Shown: in pieces, positions 8,557-58,505 of the stretch
Layout: every line of letters starts with the position of its first letter
Position numbering within the stretch: the first letter of the stretch is position 1
NCBI RefSeq assembly: GCF_003019035.1
Contig: NZ_CP027447.1
DNA: 64,000 bases
Source of the DNA: Escherichia coli
Lineage (GTDB): Bacteria > Pseudomonadota > Gammaproteobacteria > Enterobacterales > Enterobacteriaceae
Direction: 5' to 3' (one strand)
Made by a program: the position numbers and the translations under genes
Notes under the pieces: generated by a model
What the model saw: the letters and a program-made list of their open reading frames with translations, nothing else
What the model was told of the DNA's origin: nothing
Database searches by the model: none

Positions 8557-8737
8557 AAGAAATCCTTTCTTAGAGAATTATTGAGGTCCGGTATCATACC
8601 GATTGCAATAATGAAATAAGAGCAAACGAAGAAACTTTCAGAATTAGGCCCGGCGGCGCAGAAAATTTTGCTATTCGCCTCGCAAGAACGGAGAGCCGTC
8701 GATTGACACTAAGGGCGGAGTGACATAATTTCAGGAG

Positions 8738-8886
8738 TGAGGGTTAGGGAGAGGTTTCCCCCTCCCCCTGGTGTTCTTAGTAAGCCTGGAAGCTAATCAC
8801 TAAGAGTATCACCAGTATGATGACGTGCTTCATCATAACCCTTTCCTTATTAAAAGCCCTCTTCTCCGGGAGAGGGTTTCCCGTTT
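8738..8886 (+). ncRNA. sibA: Sib antitoxin sRNA, unit 1 (SibA-like); ends approximate
   Basis: Sigma70-like promoter TTGACA(8703-8708)-N17-TAATTT(8726-8731); the transcript is fully antisense to ibs unit 1; hairpin at about 8856-8877 followed by TTTCCCGTTT. Confidence 0.65.
8777..8836 (-). CDS. ibsA: Ibs type I toxin, 19 aa (MMKHVIILVILLVISFQAY)
   Basis: Hand translation of the minus strand; it is a hydrophobic peptide that matches my memory of IbsA. Confidence 0.8.
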   Translation of the reverse strand: MMKHVIILVILLVISFQAY

Positions 8887-9072
8887 CAGCGTCCCGCTGA
8901 AATCGTCGGCTTACCTCCTTTCGCCCTGAATGCAGTCTATCGCTAACGCGTGAACAAAATAGTTTCCTCTGTGATTATTCCGTAACGACTCGCAAAGAAT
9001 ATTTGCTGGCAGGATCGCAGACTACAAAGCCTGCGGATTGACAATCTTATCGTGAAGGCATAATTTCAGGAG

Positions 9073-9216
9073 TGAGGGTAGAGCGGGGTTTCCCCCGCCC
9101 TGGTAGTCTTAGTAAGCGGGGAAGCTTATGACTAAGAGCACCACGATGATGAGTATCTTCATCATGACCCTTTCCTTATTTATGGCCCCTTCCTCGGGAG
9201 GGGCTTTCCCGTTTCA
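9073..9216 (+). ncRNA. sibB: Sib antitoxin sRNA, unit 2 (SibB-like); ends approximate
   Basis: Promoter TTGACA-N17-TAATTT(9061-9066), antisense to ibs unit 2, GC hairpin at about 9184-9204 plus T-rich tail. Confidence 0.65.
9109..9165 (-). CDS. ibsB: Ibs type I toxin, 18 aa (MMKILIIVVLLVISFPAY)
   Basis: Hand translation of the minus strand; IbsB-like. Confidence 0.75.
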   Translation of the reverse strand: MMKILIIVVLLVISFPAY

Positions 9217-9400
9217 GCGTCCCGCTGAAATCGTCGGCTTACCTCCTTCTGTCCTGTATGCAGTCTATCGCTGACTTGCGGATAAAATAGTTTCCAATGT
9301 GATTATTGCGTAACGTCTCGCAAAGAATATTTGCTGGCAGGATCGCAGACTGCAAAGCCTGCAGATTGACAATATTATCGTGAAGGCATACTTTCAGGAG

Positions 9401-9543
9401 TGAGGGTAGAGCGGGGTTTCCCCCGCCCTGGTAGTCTTAGTAAGCCGGGAAGCTTATGACTAAGAGCACCACGATGATGATCCACTTCATCATGACCCTT
9501 TCCTTATTTAAGGCCCCTTCCTCGGGAGGGGCTTTCCCGTTTC
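9401..9543 (+). ncRNA. Sib antitoxin sRNA, unit 3 (additional copy); ends approximate
   Basis: Promoter TTGACA-N17-TACTTT(9389-9394), antisense to ibs unit 3, GC hairpin at about 9512-9532 plus T-rich tail. Confidence 0.6.
9437..9493 (-). CDS. Ibs type I toxin, 18 aa (MMKWIIIVVLLVISFPAY), third copy
   Basis: Hand translation of the minus strand; IbsB-like variant with W at position 4. Confidence 0.7.
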   Translation of the reverse strand: MMKWIIIVVLLVISFPAY

Positions 9544-9700
9544 AGCGTCCCGCTGAAATCGTCGGCCTACCTCCTTTTGCCCTGAATGCAGTCTATCGCT
9601 AACGCGTAGATAAAATAGTTTCCTGTGTTATTACTGGATGCGTGCTCGCAAATGTGCCCGCCATTCAGACGATTCCCGATAGTGTTTCATAATTCCTCCA

Positions 9701-40455: not shown

Positions 40456-41280
40456 ATGACCGAATTTACAACACTTCTTCAGCAAGGAAACGCCTGGTTC
40501 TTCATCCCCAGCGCCATCTTACTTGGTGCGCTTCATGGCCTGGAACCGGGGCACTCAAAAACGATGATGGCGGCGTTTATCATCGCCATCAAAGGCACCA
40601 TTAAACAGGCGGTGATGCTCGGACTGGCAGCAACCATTTCGCATACCGCAGTGGTCTGGTTAATTGCCTTTGGCGGGATGGTGATCAGCAAACGCTTTAC
40701 TGCTCAATCAGCAGAACCGTGGCTCCAGTTGATTTCCGCAGTGATCATTATTAGCACCGCGTTCTGGATGTTCTGGCGTACCTGGCGCGGCGAACGCAAC
40801 TGGCTGGAGAATATGCACGAGCATGATCATGAGCATCATCACCACGATCACGAAGATCACCACGACCATGGACATCATCACCATCACGAACATGGCGAGT
40901 ATCAGGATGCCCATGCACGAGCCCATGCCAATGACATTAAACGACGCTTTGATGGTAGAGAGGTCACCAACTGGCAAATTTTGCTATTTGGCTTAACCGG
41001 TGGCCTTATCCCCTGCCCGGCAGCAATTACCGTGCTGTTGATTTGCATTCAGTTGAAAGCCCTGACACTGGGCGCAACACTGGTCGTCAGTTTCAGCCTC
41101 GGCCTGGCGTTAACGCTTGTCACCGTAGGCGTTGGCGCAGCAATCAGCGTTCAGCAGGTCGCAAAACGCTGGAGCGGATTTAACACTCTCGCTAAACGCG
41201 CTCCCTATTTTTCCAGTCTGTTGATTGGCTTAGTTGGTGTGTATATGGGCGTACATGGCTTCATGGGCATAATGCGATAA
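40456..41280 (+). CDS. rcnA: Nickel/cobalt efflux protein RcnA
   Basis: 274-aa membrane protein with a His-rich loop (HEHDHEHHHHDHEDHHDHGHHHHHEH). Confidence 0.92.
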   Translation: MTEFTTLLQQGNAWFFIPSAILLGALHGLEPGHSKTMMAAFIIAIKGTIKQAVMLGLAATISHTAVVWLIAFGGMVISKRFTAQSAEPWLQLISAVIIISTAFWMFWRTWRGERNWLENMHEHDHEHHHHDHEDHHDHGHHHHHEHGEYQDAHARAHANDIKRRFDGREVTNWQILLFGLTGGLIPCPAAITVLLICIQLKALTLGATLVVSFSLGLALTLVTVGVGAAISVQQVAKRWSGFNTLAKRAPYFSSLLIGLVGVYMGVHGFMGIMR

Positions 41281-51044: not shown

Positions 51045-54000
51045 ATGAGACACTTTATCTATCAGGACGAAAAATCACATAAATTCTGGGCGGTGGAGCA
51101 GCAGGGAAACGAGTTGCATATCTGTTGGGGAAAAGTTGGCACCAAAGGGCAAAACCAAGTAAAAAGTTTTGCGGATGCTGCGGCAGCGGCAAAAGCGGAG
51201 CTTAAGCTGATCGCGGAGAAGGTGAAGAAGGGATATGTGGAGCAAGCGAAGGATAATTCTTTGCAACCTTCCCAAACGGTAACGGACTCTCTCAAGGTAG
51301 CGGACTTATCCACCATTATTCAGGAACAACCCTCTTTCGTAGCAGAAACCCGTGCGGCTGACAAAAATACAGATGCTGTTTTACCGTGGCTGGCAAAAGA
51401 TATTGCTGTCGTTTTTCCGCTTGAAGTCGTACCCACCACCTTAAGCCATCGCCGCTTTCCCGGAGATCCTGTTACACCTGTAGATAAATTAACCCAGTTA
51501 CGTCGCTTAGCCTGTGGCGTGTCGCAACGGGATAACAAAACAGCTACATTTGACTTCAGCGCCTGTACTTTAGAGTGGCAAAACTTCATCGCTCAGGCGA
51601 TCGATCTGATTAACAGCCCGAAAACGACAAAATTACCATCACCGGTAATGGCTGTACTCGCGGCACTTGAACTGCACTGCACGAGATATAAAGAGCGTGA
51701 GGATGTTATGGATCAGATTATTCAGGAAGGCGGTCTGGAATATGCTACTGATGTAATAATACATCTTCAACAAATATCTATTGAATGGGATTATGTCAAC
51801 AATAATATTGTTTTCCTGTCGTCTGGCATTTCACCTGATTACTTGCAGCAATATTCCAGCTTTGAATTACGCCTACGTAAACATTTATCACTGGCGGAAG
51901 AGTCTCTCTGGCAAAAATGTGCACAAAAACTTATTGCCGCAGTTCCACATATTCCAGAATGGCGGCAACCATTAATTGCTTTGTTATTACCCGAAAAACC
52001 AGAAATTGCACATGAAATTGCCCAGCGTCTACTGGGGCAAAAGAAATTACCCTCGCTTGAGTGGCTAAAAATAGTGGCGACTGATGAGCACATTCTTGCC
52101 TCATTAGAAAAATATCACGAGCCATATGCCATTTTTGATGATTACTATTGTGGTGCGATATGGTCAGCCACCGTATTACAGGAGCAAGGTGTTGCAGCCC
52201 TGCCCCGATTTGCACCCTATGTCGCAAGTGACTACTGCGCCGATGTGTTGAGTCATATCAATCATCCGTTCGCATTAACACTGCTTATACGTGTAGCCGG
52301 GCATACTAAACGCTGTCACGATCGAATGACGAAAGCCTGCGCTGCGTTCCCACACGCAGCACTGGCAGCACTGGCGGAACTTCTAGTGCAAAAAGAAGAG
52401 AATAGTTGGCGCATTATGCTAATGACGATGCTTATCTCGCAACCTACACTAGCAGAACAGGTCATTCCCTGGCTTTCGACACCCGCAGTTGCAGTGCTGA
52501 AATCATGCCAGCAACAACTGAAACAGCCCTCAAACCATGCCAGTGCCGATCTACTGCCGGCCATAGTAGTCTCCCCACCATGGCTTTCGAAAAAGAAAAA
52601 ATCGCCGATTCCGGTGCTTGATTTAGCACCGCTCAACCTCGAATCCATATGCACAATAACCGACACAGAAGCTAAAGAGTTTCAAACTCATTGGGACTGG
52701 GAACCGCATAAGCCAGGTGAAGGTGCTAAAGATTTCCTTTACTCGCTGGGGTATCGCCGCTGGGATTTTGACACATATAAATATATCGGCGCTTCTGACT
52801 CGGCAATTGACGCATGGGAACGTGAGGACTTCGCTACACTCATCCAAATGTTTAAAGCCCACCATGCACCGTATCAGGGGGAGTGGCATCTCAACTCACT
52901 TCCCTTTTTACCTATGCAAAAAGCGATTAAACTATGGGAATTTCTCAGCAAAGAGCCGCATACCGCGGTAAAACCTGTCATGCTTTATTTGCGACTGGCA
53001 GGTATGAGTGGTTTTCTACACTCGTTTTCACGCTACCCTCAAGAAGGTTTTGCGGTTGCTAATTATTTTGCCGCAACGGAACTGGCTCCTGCCGTCGCCC
53101 GCGCCTTTAACAAACTCAAAACTCTACGACAAGACGCCCGCACCTGGCTGCTGAAATATCCGGAACATGCCATTACCGGCCTGTTGCCTGCGGCACTCGG
53201 CAAAGCCGGTGAATCCCAGGATAACGCCCGTGCCGCTTTACGTATGTTGATTGAAAATGGTTATCCGTCATTACTGCAAGAAATCGCCCAGCGTTATAAC
53301 CAGCCGGAAGTAACCGATGCGGTGAACGCTCTACTTGCGCTCGATCCCTTAGATAATCACCCGACTAAAATCCCGACACTTCCGGCCTTTTATCAGCCAT
53401 CGCTCTGGACGCGCCCGGTATTAAAAGCAAACGCCCAATCACTGCCAGATAGCGCCCTCTTCCACCTCGGTGAAATGCTCCGCTTCCCTCAGGAAGATAC
53501 GCTGTATCCGGGGTTATTACAGGTGAAAGACGCCTGTACTGCCGACTCACTGGCTGAGTTTGCCTGGGATCTGTTTACCGCCTGGCAGACCGCTGGCGTG
53601 CCGTCGAAAGAGAGCTGGGCGTTCACTGCATTAGGTGTTCTTGGCAACGATGACACCGCCCGCAAACTGACGCCATTAATCCGCGCCTGGCCTGGCGAAT
53701 CTCAGCATAAACGTGCCACCGTTGGGTTGGATATTCTCGCTGCTATCGGCAGCGATATCGCCCTGATGCAGCTTAACGGCATCGCCCAGAAACTGAAATT
53801 CAAAGCCTTACAGGAGCGGGCGAAAGAAAAAATTGCCGACATTGCCGAAAGTCGCGAACTCACAGTGGCAGAACTTGAAGATCGGTTAGCACCGGATCTC
53901 GGTCTGGATGATAACGGTTCGCTGCTGCTGGATTTCGGGCCACGGCAGTTCACCGTCAGCTTTGATGAAACCTTAAAACCGTTTGTGCGTGATGCTTCCG

Positions 54001-54833
54001 GCAGCCGCCTGAAAGACTTGCCTAAACCGAACAAAAGCGATGATGAAACCCAAGCGAACGATGCAGTTAACCGCTACAAACTGTTGAAAAAAGATGCGCG
54101 TACCGTTGCCGCCCAGCAGGTAGCAAGGCTGGAATCCGCCATGTGCCTGCGCCGCCGCTGGTCGCCGGAAAACTTTCAGCTCTTCCTGGTTGAGCATCCG
54201 CTGGTTCGCCACTTAACCCGCCGTCTGATTTGGGGCGTTTATAGCACCGAAAACGAGCTACTGGCTTGCTTTCGCGTGGCGGAAGATAACAGCTACAGCA
54301 CCGCAGACGATGATCTTTTCACCCTGCCGGAAGGCGATATCTCTGTTGGCATTCCTCACGTTCTGGAAATATCACCCACGGATGCTGCCGCCTTTGGTCA
54401 ACTTTTTGCCGACTACGAACTGCTACCGCCGTTCCGCCAGCTCGACCGTAACAGTTACGCCCTGACAGAAGCCGAGCGCAACGCCAGCGAACTGACCCGC
54501 TGGGCAGGCAGAAAATGCCCGAGCGGTCGGGTAATGGGGCTGGCGAATAAAGGCTGGATAAAGGGCACCCCGCAGGATGGAGGCTGGATCGGCTGGATGA
54601 TCAAACCTCTCGGTCGCTGGTCGTTAATCATGGAAATCAATGAAGGATTTGCAGTTGGTATGTCGCCAGCCGAACTCAGTGCCGAGCAACTCTTAAGTAA
54701 GCTGTGGCTATGGGAAGGCAAAGCGGAAAGCTATGGCTGGGGGAGCAATTCAACACAGGAAGCGCAGTTCTCCGTACTCGATGCCATCACCGCCAGCGAG
54801 CTAATTAACGATATTGAAGCCCTTTTTGAATAA
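51045..54833 (+). CDS. yehH: Large WGR-like N-terminal domain protein YehH (MolR-like), intact
   Basis: 1262-aa uninterrupted ORF. N-terminus FIYQDEKSHKFWAVEQQGNELHICWGKVG looks like a WGR domain. It shares long collinear blocks with the downstream paralog. Confidence 0.85.
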   Translation: MRHFIYQDEKSHKFWAVEQQGNELHICWGKVGTKGQNQVKSFADAAAAAKAELKLIAEKVKKGYVEQAKDNSLQPSQTVTDSLKVADLSTIIQEQPSFVAETRAADKNTDAVLPWLAKDIAVVFPLEVVPTTLSHRRFPGDPVTPVDKLTQLRRLACGVSQRDNKTATFDFSACTLEWQNFIAQAIDLINSPKTTKLPSPVMAVLAALELHCTRYKEREDVMDQIIQEGGLEYATDVIIHLQQISIEWDYVNNNIVFLSSGISPDYLQQYSSFELRLRKHLSLAEESLWQKCAQKLIAAVPHIPEWRQPLIALLLPEKPEIAHEIAQRLLGQKKLPSLEWLKIVATDEHILASLEKYHEPYAIFDDYYCGAIWSATVLQEQGVAALPRFAPYVASDYCADVLSHINHPFALTLLIRVAGHTKRCHDRMTKACAAFPHAALAALAELLVQKEENSWRIMLMTMLISQPTLAEQVIPWLSTPAVAVLKSCQQQLKQPSNHASADLLPAIVVSPPWLSKKKKSPIPVLDLAPLNLESICTITDTEAKEFQTHWDWEPHKPGEGAKDFLYSLGYRRWDFDTYKYIGASDSAIDAWEREDFATLIQMFKAHHAPYQGEWHLNSLPFLPMQKAIKLWEFLSKEPHTAVKPVMLYLRLAGMSGFLHSFSRYPQEGFAVANYFAATELAPAVARAFNKLKTLRQDARTWLLKYPEHAITGLLPAALGKAGESQDNARAALRMLIENGYPSLLQEIAQRYNQPEVTDAVNALLALDPLDNHPTKIPTLPAFYQPSLWTRPVLKANAQSLPDSALFHLGEMLRFPQEDTLYPGLLQVKDACTADSLAEFAWDLFTAWQTAGVPSKESWAFTALGVLGNDDTARKLTPLIRAWPGESQHKRATVGLDILAAIGSDIALMQLNGIAQKLKFKALQERAKEKIADIAESRELTVAELEDRLAPDLGLDDNGSLLLDFGPRQFTVSFDETLKPFVRDASGSRLKDLPKPNKSDDETQANDAVNRYKLLKKDARTVAAQQVARLESAMCLRRRWSPENFQLFLVEHPLVRHLTRRLIWGVYSTENELLACFRVAEDNSYSTADDDLFTLPEGDISVGIPHVLEISPTDAAAFGQLFADYELLPPFRQLDRNSYALTEAERNASELTRWAGRKCPSGRVMGLANKGWIKGTPQDGGWIGWMIKPLGRWSLIMEINEGFAVGMSPAELSAEQLLSKLWLWEGKAESYGWGSNSTQEAQFSVLDAITASELINDIEALFE

Positions 54834-54842
54834 GGAAAGAGC

Positions 54843-57800
54843 ATGGACAAGGAATTACCGTGGCTGGCGGATAACGCGCAACTGGAACTGAAATATAAAA
54901 AGGGTAAAACACCACTCAGCCATCGCAATTGGCCGGGTGAACCGGTGCCTGTTATCACTGAAAGCATCATCCAGACACTGGGTGATGAATTGCTACACAT
55001 TGCTGAGAAGAAAAAAAACATTGTCTGGCGTTATGATAATTTTTCACTGGAGTGGCAGTCCGCCATCACGCAGGCCATCAACTTGATCGGCGAACACAAA
55101 CCCTCAATCCCGGCCCGGACAATGGCGGCGCTAGCCTGTATCGCGCAAAATGATAGCCAACAGTTACTCGACGAAATCGTCCAACAAGAGGGACTGGAAT
55201 ATGCGACTGAAGTGGTGATTGCACGCCAGTTTATTGTACGGTGTTATGAGAGTGATCCTCTGGTAGTAACATTGCAGTATCAGAAGGAGGACTATGGCTA
55301 TGGCTATGGCTATGGCTATGGCTATGGCTATGGTTATCGCTCAGAAACCTATAACGAATTCGATCTCCGACTGCGTAAGCATCTCTCTCTGGCAGAGGAA
55401 AGCTGCTGGCAGCGTTGCGCCGACAAACTCATTGCCGCACTGCCAGGACTACCCCAAGTTCGCCGTCCTTTTATTGCACTCATCCTCCCGGAAAAACCAG
55501 AAATCGCCAATGAGTTGGTAGGCCTTGAATGCCCGTGGACTCATTTTCATTCTAAGGAGTGGTTAAAAGTTGTTGCTACTGACCACAGGGCAGTGGGAAA
55601 ACTCGAACGCTACTGGAGCCAGGATATATTTAGCGATCGCGAAGCCAGCTACATGTCGCATGAAAACCACTTCGGCTACGCGGCCTGCGCCGCCCTTTTG
55701 CGCGAACAAGGAATTGCAGCCGTTCCACGCCTCGCGATGTATGCCCATAAAGAAGATTGCGGTAGCCTGCTGGTACAAATTAACCATCCGCAGGTCATCC
55801 GCACCCTGCTGTTAGTTGCTGATAAAAACAAACCCAGCCTGCAACGTGTGGCTAAATACAGTAAAAACTTCCCCCATGCGACGCTTGCCGCACTGGCAGA
55901 GCTTCTGGCGTTAAAAGAACCGCCTGCACGCCCTGGTTATCCAATCATCGAAGACAAAAAGCTGCCTGCACAGCAAAAAGCTCGAGATGAATACTGGCGT
56001 ACGCTGTTACAAACGCTGATGGCATCGCAGCCACAACTGGCAGAAGAGGTGATGCCGTGGTTAAGTACTCAAGCCCAGGCAGTGCTGAATAGTTATTTAT
56101 CGGCACCGCCCAAAACGGTTATTGATAGCACCGATAACATCCAAATGCCTGAAATCCTCGTTTCACCACCGTGGCGTAGTAAGAAAAAAATGACAGTTCC
56201 ACGTCTTGATTTGGCACCGTTCGAATTAACGCCGCAAGTTTACTGGCAACCAGGCGAACGAGAGAGGCTTGCCGCCACTGAGTCTGCCCGTTATTTCAGC
56301 ACGGAATCTCTTGCGGAACGCATGGAACAAAAAAGTGGACGAGTTGTATTACAGGAGCTGGGTTTTGGAGATGATGTATGGCTGTTTTTGAATTATATAC
56401 TCCCCGGAAAACTGGATGCTGCACGCAATTCACTCATTGTTCAGTGGCATTACTACCCAGGGCGGGTTGAAGAGATCATGAATGGCTGGAGCTCCCCGGA
56501 AGCTCAATTAGCAGAACAGGCGCTTCGCAACGGTCACGTAGAAGTGTTAATTAACATATGGGAAAATGACAGCTACTCACGCTATCGTCGGGAAAAGAGT
56601 ATCTGGAACCTGTATTTATTGGCGCAGTTGCCGCGTGAGATGGCTTTGACTTTCTGGCTACGTATCAATGAGAAAAAGCATCTGTCTGCGGGTGAGGACT
56701 ATTATCTCAGTATCTTCGGATTGGATGCTCTACCAGGTCTGCTGTTGGCTTTTTCACATCGTCCAAAAGAAACATTTCCATTAATTTTAAATTTCGGCGC
56801 AACAGAACTGGCCCTGCCCGTTGCCCGCGTCTGGCGACGTTTCGCGGCGCAGCGTGATCTGGCTCGCCAGTGGATTTTACATTGGCCGGAACATACAGCT
56901 ACTGCACTTATCCCTCTTGTCTTCACCAAATCCAGCGATAATAGCGAAGCTGCATTACTTGCCCTGCGTTTACTTTACGAACAGGGACATGGCGAGTTAC
57001 TGCAAACCGTGGCAAACCGCTGGCAGCGTACAGATGTGTGGCCTGCCCTGGAGCAATTACTTAAACAGAGTCCAATAGAGATTTACCCGACACGCATTCC
57101 AAAAGCCCCTGATTTCTGGCAGCCGGCAATGTGGTCCAGGCCGCGCCTTATCACGAATAATCAACCTGTTACCGATGACGCTCTGGAAATTATCGGCGAA
57201 ATGCTGTGCTTTACCCAGGGCGGACGTTTTTATAGCGGACTGGAACAACTGAAAACTTTCTGCCAGCCGCAAACGCTGGCAGCTTTTGCCTGGGATCTCT
57301 TCACCGCGTGGCAACAAGCTGGTGCTACCGCAAAAGACAACTGGGCATTTCTGGCGTTAAGTCTCTTTGGCGACGAAAGCACGGCACGGGATCTGACGAC
57401 ACAGATCCTTGCCTGGCCACAAGAGGGCAAATCTGCCCGTGCTGTCAGTGGTCTGAATATACTTACTCAGATGAATAATGATATGGCACTGATACAGCTG
57501 CATCATATATCGCAACGGGCGAAATCCCGCCCCTTACGTGATAACGCGGCGGAATTTCTTCAGGTGGTCGCAGAAAATCGTGGGCTAAGCCAGGAACAGT
57601 TAGCGGACAGATTAGTCCCAACACTGGGTCTTGATGATCCGCAGGCGTTGAGTTTTGATTTTGGTCCCCGGCAGTTTACCGTTCGCTTTGATGAAAACCT
57701 TAACCCGGTTATCTTTGATCAGCAAAACGTTCGCCAGAAAAGCGTTCCCCGGTTGCGCGCCGATGACGATCAACTGAAAGCGCCCGAGGCACTGGCCCGA

Positions 57801-58505
57801 CTAAAAGGGCTAAAAAAAGATGCCACTCAGGTGAGCAAAAACCTGCTCCCACGTCTTGAAACTGCCCTGCGCACCACCCGACGCTGGTCGCTGGCAGATT
57901 TTCATTCTCTGTTTGTTAATCATCCCTTTACCCGCCTGGTTACTCAGCGATTGATATGGGCGGTTTATCCGGCAAATGAACCGCGTCGTTTACTCAACGC
58001 CTTTCGTGTGGCCGCTGAGGGGGAGTTCTGCAATGAGCAAGATGAGCCAATTGACCTGCCTGCCGATGCTCTGATTGGCATTGCCCACCCGTTAGAAATG
58101 ACAGCAGAAATGCGCAGTGAATTTGCACAGCTTTTTGCCGATTACGAAATTATGCCGCCTTTTCGCCAGTTGACGCGGCGCACAGTGCTGCTCACGCCTG
58201 ACGAGTCAGCCAGTAATAGTTTGAATCGCTGGGAAGGTAAATCTGCTACCGTTGGGCAGCTTATGGGAATGCGATACAAAGGCTGGGAGTCAGGCTATGA
58301 GAACGCATTTGTCTATGACCTGGGCGAGTACCGGCTGGTCCTTAAGTTTTCATCCGGTTTTAACCACTACAATGTTGATAGCAAAGCGCTAATGAGCTTC
58401 CGTTCTCTTCATGTATACCGTGACAATAAATCTGTCACTTTTGCCGAACTTGATGTGTTTGATTTGAGTGAAGCGTTAAGCGCACCCGACGTCATTTTCC
58501 ATTAA
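54843..58505 (+). CDS. yehI: Large paralog of YehH lacking the WGR-like N-terminus (YehI)
   Basis: 1220-aa ORF. Shared blocks with YehH include LRLRKHLSLAEES, PEKPEIA, DLFTAWQ, LDFGPRQFTV and QLFADYE. Confidence 0.85.
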   Translation: MDKELPWLADNAQLELKYKKGKTPLSHRNWPGEPVPVITESIIQTLGDELLHIAEKKKNIVWRYDNFSLEWQSAITQAINLIGEHKPSIPARTMAALACIAQNDSQQLLDEIVQQEGLEYATEVVIARQFIVRCYESDPLVVTLQYQKEDYGYGYGYGYGYGYGYRSETYNEFDLRLRKHLSLAEESCWQRCADKLIAALPGLPQVRRPFIALILPEKPEIANELVGLECPWTHFHSKEWLKVVATDHRAVGKLERYWSQDIFSDREASYMSHENHFGYAACAALLREQGIAAVPRLAMYAHKEDCGSLLVQINHPQVIRTLLLVADKNKPSLQRVAKYSKNFPHATLAALAELLALKEPPARPGYPIIEDKKLPAQQKARDEYWRTLLQTLMASQPQLAEEVMPWLSTQAQAVLNSYLSAPPKTVIDSTDNIQMPEILVSPPWRSKKKMTVPRLDLAPFELTPQVYWQPGERERLAATESARYFSTESLAERMEQKSGRVVLQELGFGDDVWLFLNYILPGKLDAARNSLIVQWHYYPGRVEEIMNGWSSPEAQLAEQALRNGHVEVLINIWENDSYSRYRREKSIWNLYLLAQLPREMALTFWLRINEKKHLSAGEDYYLSIFGLDALPGLLLAFSHRPKETFPLILNFGATELALPVARVWRRFAAQRDLARQWILHWPEHTATALIPLVFTKSSDNSEAALLALRLLYEQGHGELLQTVANRWQRTDVWPALEQLLKQSPIEIYPTRIPKAPDFWQPAMWSRPRLITNNQPVTDDALEIIGEMLCFTQGGRFYSGLEQLKTFCQPQTLAAFAWDLFTAWQQAGATAKDNWAFLALSLFGDESTARDLTTQILAWPQEGKSARAVSGLNILTQMNNDMALIQLHHISQRAKSRPLRDNAAEFLQVVAENRGLSQEQLADRLVPTLGLDDPQALSFDFGPRQFTVRFDENLNPVIFDQQNVRQKSVPRLRADDDQLKAPEALARLKGLKKDATQVSKNLLPRLETALRTTRRWSLADFHSLFVNHPFTRLVTQRLIWAVYPANEPRRLLNAFRVAAEGEFCNEQDEPIDLPADALIGIAHPLEMTAEMRSEFAQLFADYEIMPPFRQLTRRTVLLTPDESASNSLNRWEGKSATVGQLMGMRYKGWESGYENAFVYDLGEYRLVLKFSSGFNHYNVDSKALMSFRSLHVYRDNKSVTFAELDVFDLSEALSAPDVIFH
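55293..55334 (+). repeat. Hexanucleotide microsatellite (TATGGC)6 plus TATGGT inside yehI, encoding a (Tyr-Gly)7 tract
   Basis: Seen directly; translated as DYGYGYGYGYGYGYRS. The paralog YehH has no repeat at the equivalent position. Confidence 0.9.

Follow-up and report, generated by a model that had tools for sequence, protein, structure and literature searches.

Within the yehI gene of Escherichia coli, a run of TATGGC hexamers raises the question of whether it is a microsatellite whose length varies among strains without loss of the reading frame, and by which process its copy number changes. The window analysed here is the whole stretch of 64,000 nucleotides of E. coli DNA in which this run lies. 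An earlier note, made from the letters of the window alone, had described the run as six perfect TATGGC units followed by one TATGGT at 55293-55334, which is exactly what direct reading gives (seven units), and had placed it in frame within yehI.

A hexanucleotide array in the reading frame of yehI

The features of the locus are the following:

51045..54833, + strand: molR/yehH, paralog of yehI, 1262 aa, WGR and DUF4132; intact in the window and immediately upstream of yehI
54843..58505, + strand: yehI CDS, 1220 aa, with Pfam DUF4132 at residues 964-1148 and an N-terminal 450 aa predicted as helical repeat
55281..55292, + strand: left flank of the array, CAG AAG GAG GAC (Q-K-E-D), in which AAG is Lys148
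55293..55334, + strand: hexanucleotide microsatellite, (TATGGC)6 and TATGGT, encoding (Tyr-Gly)7 at YehI residues 151-164
55335..55340, + strand: degenerate terminal (eighth) unit TATCGC, encoding Tyr-Arg, directly after TATGGT

The array begins 450 nt into the ORF 54843..58505, at a codon boundary, and is read as (YG)7 in codons 151-164 and then YR, which completes residues 151-166. The tract is thus in frame as the earlier note had it, and the gene is also named yehI by RefSeq, where the same sequence carries the label 'yehI: DUF4132 domain-containing protein YehI' in 16 complete genomes. The DUF4132 domain (PF13569) was found in YehI only at residues 964-1148, with 160 bits versus a cutoff of 27, and the repeat tract lies N-terminal to it at a distance of about 800 residues. 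No exact-sequence match to the window YehI or to the YehI of strain SMS-3-5 was found in a collection of 15 billion proteins.

Tandem Repeats Finder placed the array at 55292-55341 (period 6, 8.3 copies, 93% matches, score 86), and this was the sole array with a period of at most 6 and at least 4 copies in the 64 kb window. The number of such arrays to be expected by chance per 64 kb is about 1.5e-15 under a uniform base composition, counting as an array any 36 nt that repeat a hexamer with at most one mismatch.

Repeat number in complete E. coli genomes

The earlier note had expected the repeat to be variable among strains, and the unit count across E. coli that it proposed was carried out by searching 5,426 complete E. 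coli genomes with a 442-bp query that had the array at its centre. The yehI locus is present in 4,822 of them. Twenty sequences were read individually, namely those of 19 representative genomes and that of the window itself; the other counts come from alignment length and identity bands. The repeat number is not the same everywhere: direct reading gave nine length alleles (2, 3, 4, 5, 6, 7, 8, 9 and 12 units), whose sole difference is the number of TATGGC units. They are distributed as follows:

2 units: MFDpir (a K-12 derivative), CFT073 and numerous other strains; about 97% of genomes
3 units: IAI39, CE10 and GF131; 16 records, as equal-length matches to the 3-unit query
3 units, in an independent GGC-GGT-GGT form: RMDEC465; 1 record
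4 units: ST648-type strains; 59 records, in the band of at least 99% identity to the 4-unit query
5 units: two ST648-type strains and one SMS-3-5-type strain; 3 records
6 units: EC332; 1 record
7 units: SMS-3-5 and 15 others; 16 records (the window itself also has 7)
8 units: 702/18 and three dog isolates of one collection; 4 records
9 units: two isolates of one collection; 2 records
12 units: SCU-301; 1 record

The two-unit state is therefore found in about 97% of the complete genomes that carry the locus, and in two systematic samples of the whole ranking the two-unit length appeared in 53 of 60 and 58 of 60 rows. Three or more units were found in approximately 103 genomes (2.1%), and one yehI flank type is common to them.

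The length differences among alleles are always exact multiples of 6 bp, and an intact yehI CDS is annotated for the alleles of 4 to 12 units. Since the unit is 6 bp long and is read as Tyr-Gly, the reading frame is kept in every allele, which bears out the expectation that the length would change without shifting the frame. The yehI array is an in-frame coding microsatellite or VNTR: its unit is short and repeated beyond chance, its copy number varies among strains and the frame is preserved.

Regarding the sequence around it, the variable portion of the array is the pure 5' TATGGC run. The terminal unit TATCGC is constant in the 18 of 18 read alleles that have the common YGYGYR-type motif. 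In the divergent allele L014, of which a single example was read, the terminal unit is TATGGC, giving a third YG with the length unchanged. On the other side, the AAG codon of Lys148 is common to every allele with at least 3 units and the two-unit alleles that were read have AAC or GAC in its place; this AAG variant generates a Shine-Dalgarno-like string, AAGGAGG, in the left flank.

Lineage and pace of the expansion

The variability among these genomes is restricted to about 2% of them, with one yehI flank haplotype. In a neighbour-joining tree built on the yehI flanks, the repeat number goes from 2 to 3 (IAI39), then to 3, 4 or 5 (GF131 and the ST648 type) and then to 5-12 units (the SMS-3-5/SCU-301 type, to which the window belongs). 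IAI39, CE10, SMS-3-5 and the ST648 strains are taken here to be members of phylogroup F. The Escherichia YehI orthologs, as seen in a word-indexed protein search that yielded mostly truncated E. coli fragments, share a conserved DYGYGYRSETY motif. In a divergent allele it reads DYGYGYGSATY, owing to a point change within the degenerate unit. With this ancestral motif in the Escherichia orthologs and the expansion in one yehI flank haplotype, the tract is a lineage-specific expansion, as had been proposed.

The allele diversity differs among the three types: it is 0 in the 15 genomes of the IAI39 type (3 units), 0.09 in the 62 of the ST648 type and 0.55 in the 25 of the SMS type (5-12 units), and the two-unit alleles show no length variation in the two samples of 60 rows. 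A rise of diversity with the number of pure units is what would be expected from a slippage threshold, in a comparison among genomes that is confounded by clonal sampling. The locus could then offer the 'birth' of a microsatellite traced on a phylogeny, from 2 fixed units to 3, to 4-5 and to a hypervariable 5-12, and could serve as a calibration of the slippage threshold in E. coli.

Concerning the pace of change, the alleles of 5, 6, 7, 8 and 9 units show 0 SNPs across 1,993 flanking columns, and the ST648-type alleles of 4 and 5 units show 0 SNPs outside the repeat. Moreover, an alignment of 49.9 kb between the window and SCU-301 contains 5 mismatches and 3 gap positions, yet the two have 7 and 12 units. 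These identical flanks, together with the near-identity of the window and SCU-301, indicate that the repeat, once long, outpaces point substitution by far. The same alleles nevertheless cluster by study or clone, as in the three 8-unit dog isolates and the two 9-unit isolates, so the array is stable over epidemiological time scales and is not scrambled within clones.

The explanation that very probably accounts for these observations is a coding microsatellite that changes by slippage, in frame, within a length-tolerant loop of the protein, and that has expanded stepwise and almost neutrally in one lineage. The ancestral two units, TATGGC TATGGT, which form part of the conserved DYGYGYR, would have expanded first to 3 units (IAI39/CE10 type), then to 4-5 (ST648 type) and finally to 5-12 (SMS-3-5/SCU-301 type). 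The copy number would be altered by slipped-strand mispairing at replication within the pure TATGGC run, and the changes in length would be tolerated by a poorly ordered loop that precedes the first widely conserved helix.

Protein context of the tract

The predicted structure is consistent with such a loop. The AlphaFold2 model of the N-terminal 450 residues of the 7-unit YehI (mean pLDDT of 87, pTM of 0.86) shows a fold of helical repeats in which residues 131-146 form a beta hairpin, residues 156-167 have a pLDDT below 50 and no secondary structure, and a helix follows at residues 172-183. In the model of the two-unit, K-12-type protein, the equivalent block of ten residues has a mean pLDDT of 58. 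A Foldseek search of the PDB with the N-terminal model gave no significant match (best E-value of 0.13), and the weak likenesses obtained, to PUF and HEAT/ARM proteins, were of a generic alpha-solenoid kind.

Furthermore, the segment that goes from GLEYA..V to ELRLRKHLS is not conserved among 50 homologs, where it measures 60 to 89 aa. In the more distant homologs the sequence at the position of the tract is unrelated, and many of them align only from query residue 169-177, directly past the tract. The tract thus belongs to a loop of variable length that is modelled with low confidence, with a beta hairpin before it and a conserved helix after it. The term 'linker' used in the earlier note holds loosely, for a low-confidence loop in the N-terminal helical region predicted by AlphaFold2, and does not extend to a demonstrated linker between domains. 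Poor order and a tolerance of insertions in this loop would explain how YehI could take up 20 extra residues without obvious damage, and the loop could be a handy site for tagging or engineering the protein.

State of the molR/yehI locus and possible selection on tract length

MolR/YehH is 38% identical to YehI on both sides of the tract and has a repeat-free, unrelated segment at the tract position. Since the alignment flanks the tract on both sides, the earlier statement that YehH is unrelated at the equivalent position is correct. Natural inactivation is seen in both genes. In fact, a K-12 derivative carries molR as a pseudogene, EC332 has a truncated molR, an IS1 transposase gene occupies the place of molR in IAI39, just upstream of yehI, and yehI itself has an internal stop in P15-385. 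A resistance transposon has also been described that disrupts the DUF4132 region in a successful sublineage of ST131 (PMC9334617). Judging from these sequences, the molR/yehI locus looks dispensable or decaying. With a loop that would be tolerant and a locus that is frequently inactivated, the variation in length is most probably neutral or close to it.

Next to yehI lies yehL, which encodes a MoxR-type AAA+ protein, and in SCU-301 its neighbours also include yehP (vWA) and yehQ (SWIM). PADLOC found no defence model that fits YehI, MolR or YehL.

This context also bears on a different reading, namely that the length of the Tyr-Gly loop alters the activity of YehI or its binding to partners and is being diversified or optimised under selection in the expanded lineages, as an adaptive tuning that resembles a contingency locus. 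Conservation of the YGYGY core in Escherichia YehI suggests that the motif may matter, and yehL, with yehP and yehQ in SCU-301, makes up a neighbouring gene set. In addition, the mode at 7 units resembles the predominance of mid-range sizes at the STTR5 repeat of Salmonella, in yohM (PMC5183578). On the other hand, approximately 97% of the genomes are fixed at 2 units, the tract falls in a non-conserved, low-confidence loop, the locus has been inactivated repeatedly in nature, no defence model was found by PADLOC for the three proteins, and the mode at 7 may be a mere product of clonal sampling. Adaptive tuning is consequently regarded as improbable. The more specific form of this idea, in which the loop is a functional, length-tunable element of YehI that the lineages with expanded alleles diversify under selection, for instance as a contact with a partner or ligand in a MolR/YehI-YehL-YehP-YehQ set, is more doubtful still; if it were true, it would be a rare 'tuning knob' microsatellite acting at the protein level in E. 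coli. The mode itself (16 of 25 genomes) could reflect clonal sampling or, equally, stabilising selection.

Alternative origins of the length alleles

Slippage in place, as proposed above, has to be weighed against the import or exchange of the length alleles through homologous recombination or gene conversion, in which molR or a foreign yehI could be the partner. The gene is indeed a mosaic: the YehI of the window and that of SMS-3-5 differ in 21 residues, one of them before residue 620 approximately and 20 after it, and RMDEC465 joins an expanded-type flank to an otherwise very divergent gene. Moreover, the two-unit allele L016 is nested within the expanded clade of the gene tree, a position that requires an event of either contraction or recombination. 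Against a general role of such exchanges, the flanks of the 5-9-unit alleles are fully identical over 2 kb, the 7- and 12-unit alleles occur in a 50-kb background with 5 SNPs and no donor signature, and a YG repeat that could act as donor is absent from the paralog. The search for another source of (TATGGC)n was also negative; JGI metagenome contigs scanned for the expanded-type flank with four pure TATGGC units, a pattern that fits alleles of at least 5 units, gave 0 matches. Import is thus ruled out as the general origin of the length alleles because their flanks are identical, and the probability left to it is very small.

It should also be considered whether the differences in copy number are errors of repeat resolution in assembly or sequencing, since noisy long-read assemblies can miscall short tandem repeats and the 6- and 12-unit alleles were each seen once in complete genomes. 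However, the array is at most 72 bp long, well under any read length, its units are perfect, the differences are exact multiples of 6 bp and the alleles follow the yehI haplotypes. Independent genomes of varied geographic and host origin carry identical alleles (7 units in 16 of them, 4 units in 59 and 3 units in 16), and for this reason an artefact is set aside with near certainty.

Finally, it is hardly credible that the motif is functional as DNA or RNA, with AAGGAGG and the tandem AUG GCU of the +2 frame starting a (Met-Ala)n peptide or stalling ribosomes: a perfect AAGGAGG does stand directly 5' of the repeated AUGs, only in alleles with at least 3 units, and there is a +2-frame ORF of 75 codons in the window, but this ORF lies entirely within a long conserved CDS, ranges from 42 to 85 codons among alleles and is cut by earlier stops in K-12-like, CFT073 and other sequences. 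This variation in ORF length rules out an overlapping +2-frame (Met-Ala)n as a conserved gene.

Comparison with known repeat loci

The contingency loci of Haemophilus, Neisseria and Campylobacter change by slippage within genes, faster than by point mutation, and use frameshifts or altered promoter spacing to toggle genes on and off. The yehI array resembles them in that the repeat number changes within a gene. Unlike them, it has a unit of 6 bp, the ORF stays intact and there is no on/off switching. As no allele shifts the frame, the array is not a case of phase variation; a phase-variable locus was discarded on the grounds that all length changes in the yehI CDS are multiples of 6 bp.

The generic MLVA loci of E. 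coli, CVN001-CVN017 of the Lindstedt scheme, are short tandem repeats that separate clones (PMC3407997, PMC3877011). The yehI array is also a short tandem repeat with a copy number that discriminates clones. Its allele patterns are different: CVN014 spans 2 to 11 within ST131 (PMC3407997), whereas the ST131 genome H31 has the two-unit yehI length, and the profiles of CVN007 and CVN015 in ST131 and ST648 differ from the yehI pattern. Judged by these allele patterns, the array appears not to be one of the CVN loci. The literature search returned no paper linking yehI to VNTR, tandem-repeat or MLVA terms, and the array appears to be previously undescribed, although of a familiar kind. It adds one further in-frame VNTR to E. 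coli, whose genome is poor in long microsatellites, and this is modest by itself. As a marker it would be cheap and could be sized by PCR, splitting some multidrug-resistant lineages of phylogroup F (the ST648 type and the SMS-3-5 type) by 3 to 12 units.

Among known repeats, STTR5 of Salmonella Typhimurium offers the closest comparison; its unit is 6 bp and all its alleles are in frame. It has been described as a VNTR of the coding gene yohM, located 'between two domains', which changes mostly by single-unit steps and in which mid-range sizes predominate (PMC5183578). Like STTR5, the yehI array lies within a coding gene of an enteric bacterium and its copy number differs among close relatives. 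STTR5 varies across the whole serovar, with 8-14 units as typical sizes, and in vitro measurements of its mutation exist. The yehI array, by contrast, is fixed at 2 units in approximately 97% of E. coli, and it varies (3-12 units) in a single lineage. The encoded sequences are also different, being Tyr-Gly in the yehI array and a His-rich metal-binding loop in STTR5. The gene yohM is the same as rcnA, and STTR5 is a typing locus in multi-locus VNTR analysis (MLVA).

Recombination in yehI

The yehI gene of the window (54843-58505) is a recombination mosaic, since up to about residue 620 its product differs from the YehI of SMS-3-5 (locus L020), a strain with seven repeat units, only by D174N, and beyond this point by 20 further residues. 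Strain SCU-301 is nearly identical to the window (5 mismatches across 50 kb). The exact 442-bp repeat region of the window was absent from all 5,426 complete genomes.

An exchange on a smaller scale is suggested by the yehI of strain RMDEC465 (locus L017), which carries the following array:

L017 1199-1216: three repeat units, TATGGC TATGGT TATGGT

This allele arose independently, through duplication of the TATGGT unit. The RMDEC465 gene is highly divergent, with 111-122 differences from other expanded-type alleles over 1,375 columns, whereas the 30-bp left flank of its repeat is identical to that of the expanded alleles (those with at least three units), which points to a local recombination patch.

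State of the molR/yehI pair

Both yehI and its upstream paralog molR (51045-54833) are intact in the window. Outside it, the pair has been damaged repeatedly (related loci L004, L010, L012 and L018): molR presents a frameshift in a K-12 derivative and is truncated in EC332, an IS1 transposase gene is found at the usual molR position in IAI39, and yehI contains an internal stop in P15-385. Of the 5,426 genomes, about 600 lacked any match to the yehI query.

Overlapping reading frame in yehI

A variant of the Lys148 codon gives the window yehI a perfect Shine-Dalgarno-like string, AAGGAGG. Three nucleotides separate it from the run of AUG GCU codons that follows in tandem in the +2 frame:

55284-55520: +2-frame open reading frame of 75 codons, starting with (Met-Ala)6, with the AAGGAGG region included

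This (Met-Ala)n frame is probably not a gene, because its length varies from 42 to 85 codons in other yehI alleles. Nevertheless, the AAGGAGG string could influence local translation.

Other repeats in the window

8703-9508: Sib antitoxin RNA, three copies in tandem (Rfam RF00113, each scoring 141-150 bits)
8724-9623: tandem repeat enclosing the Sib copies (TRF: period 328 bp, 2.7 copies, 89% matches)
40819-40893: imperfect repeats of His codons, of 9, 12 and 18 bp and similar to CATCACCACGATCACGAA (TRF score 72)

The corresponding Sib locus of K-12, upstream of mdtA, has two copies (SibA/SibB), so the window strain may exceed K-12 by one Ibs/Sib type I toxin-antitoxin unit.

When the window is mapped to the annotated SCU-301 genome, the His-codon repeats fall within rcnA, whose Salmonella equivalent, yohM, contains the STTR5 VNTR.
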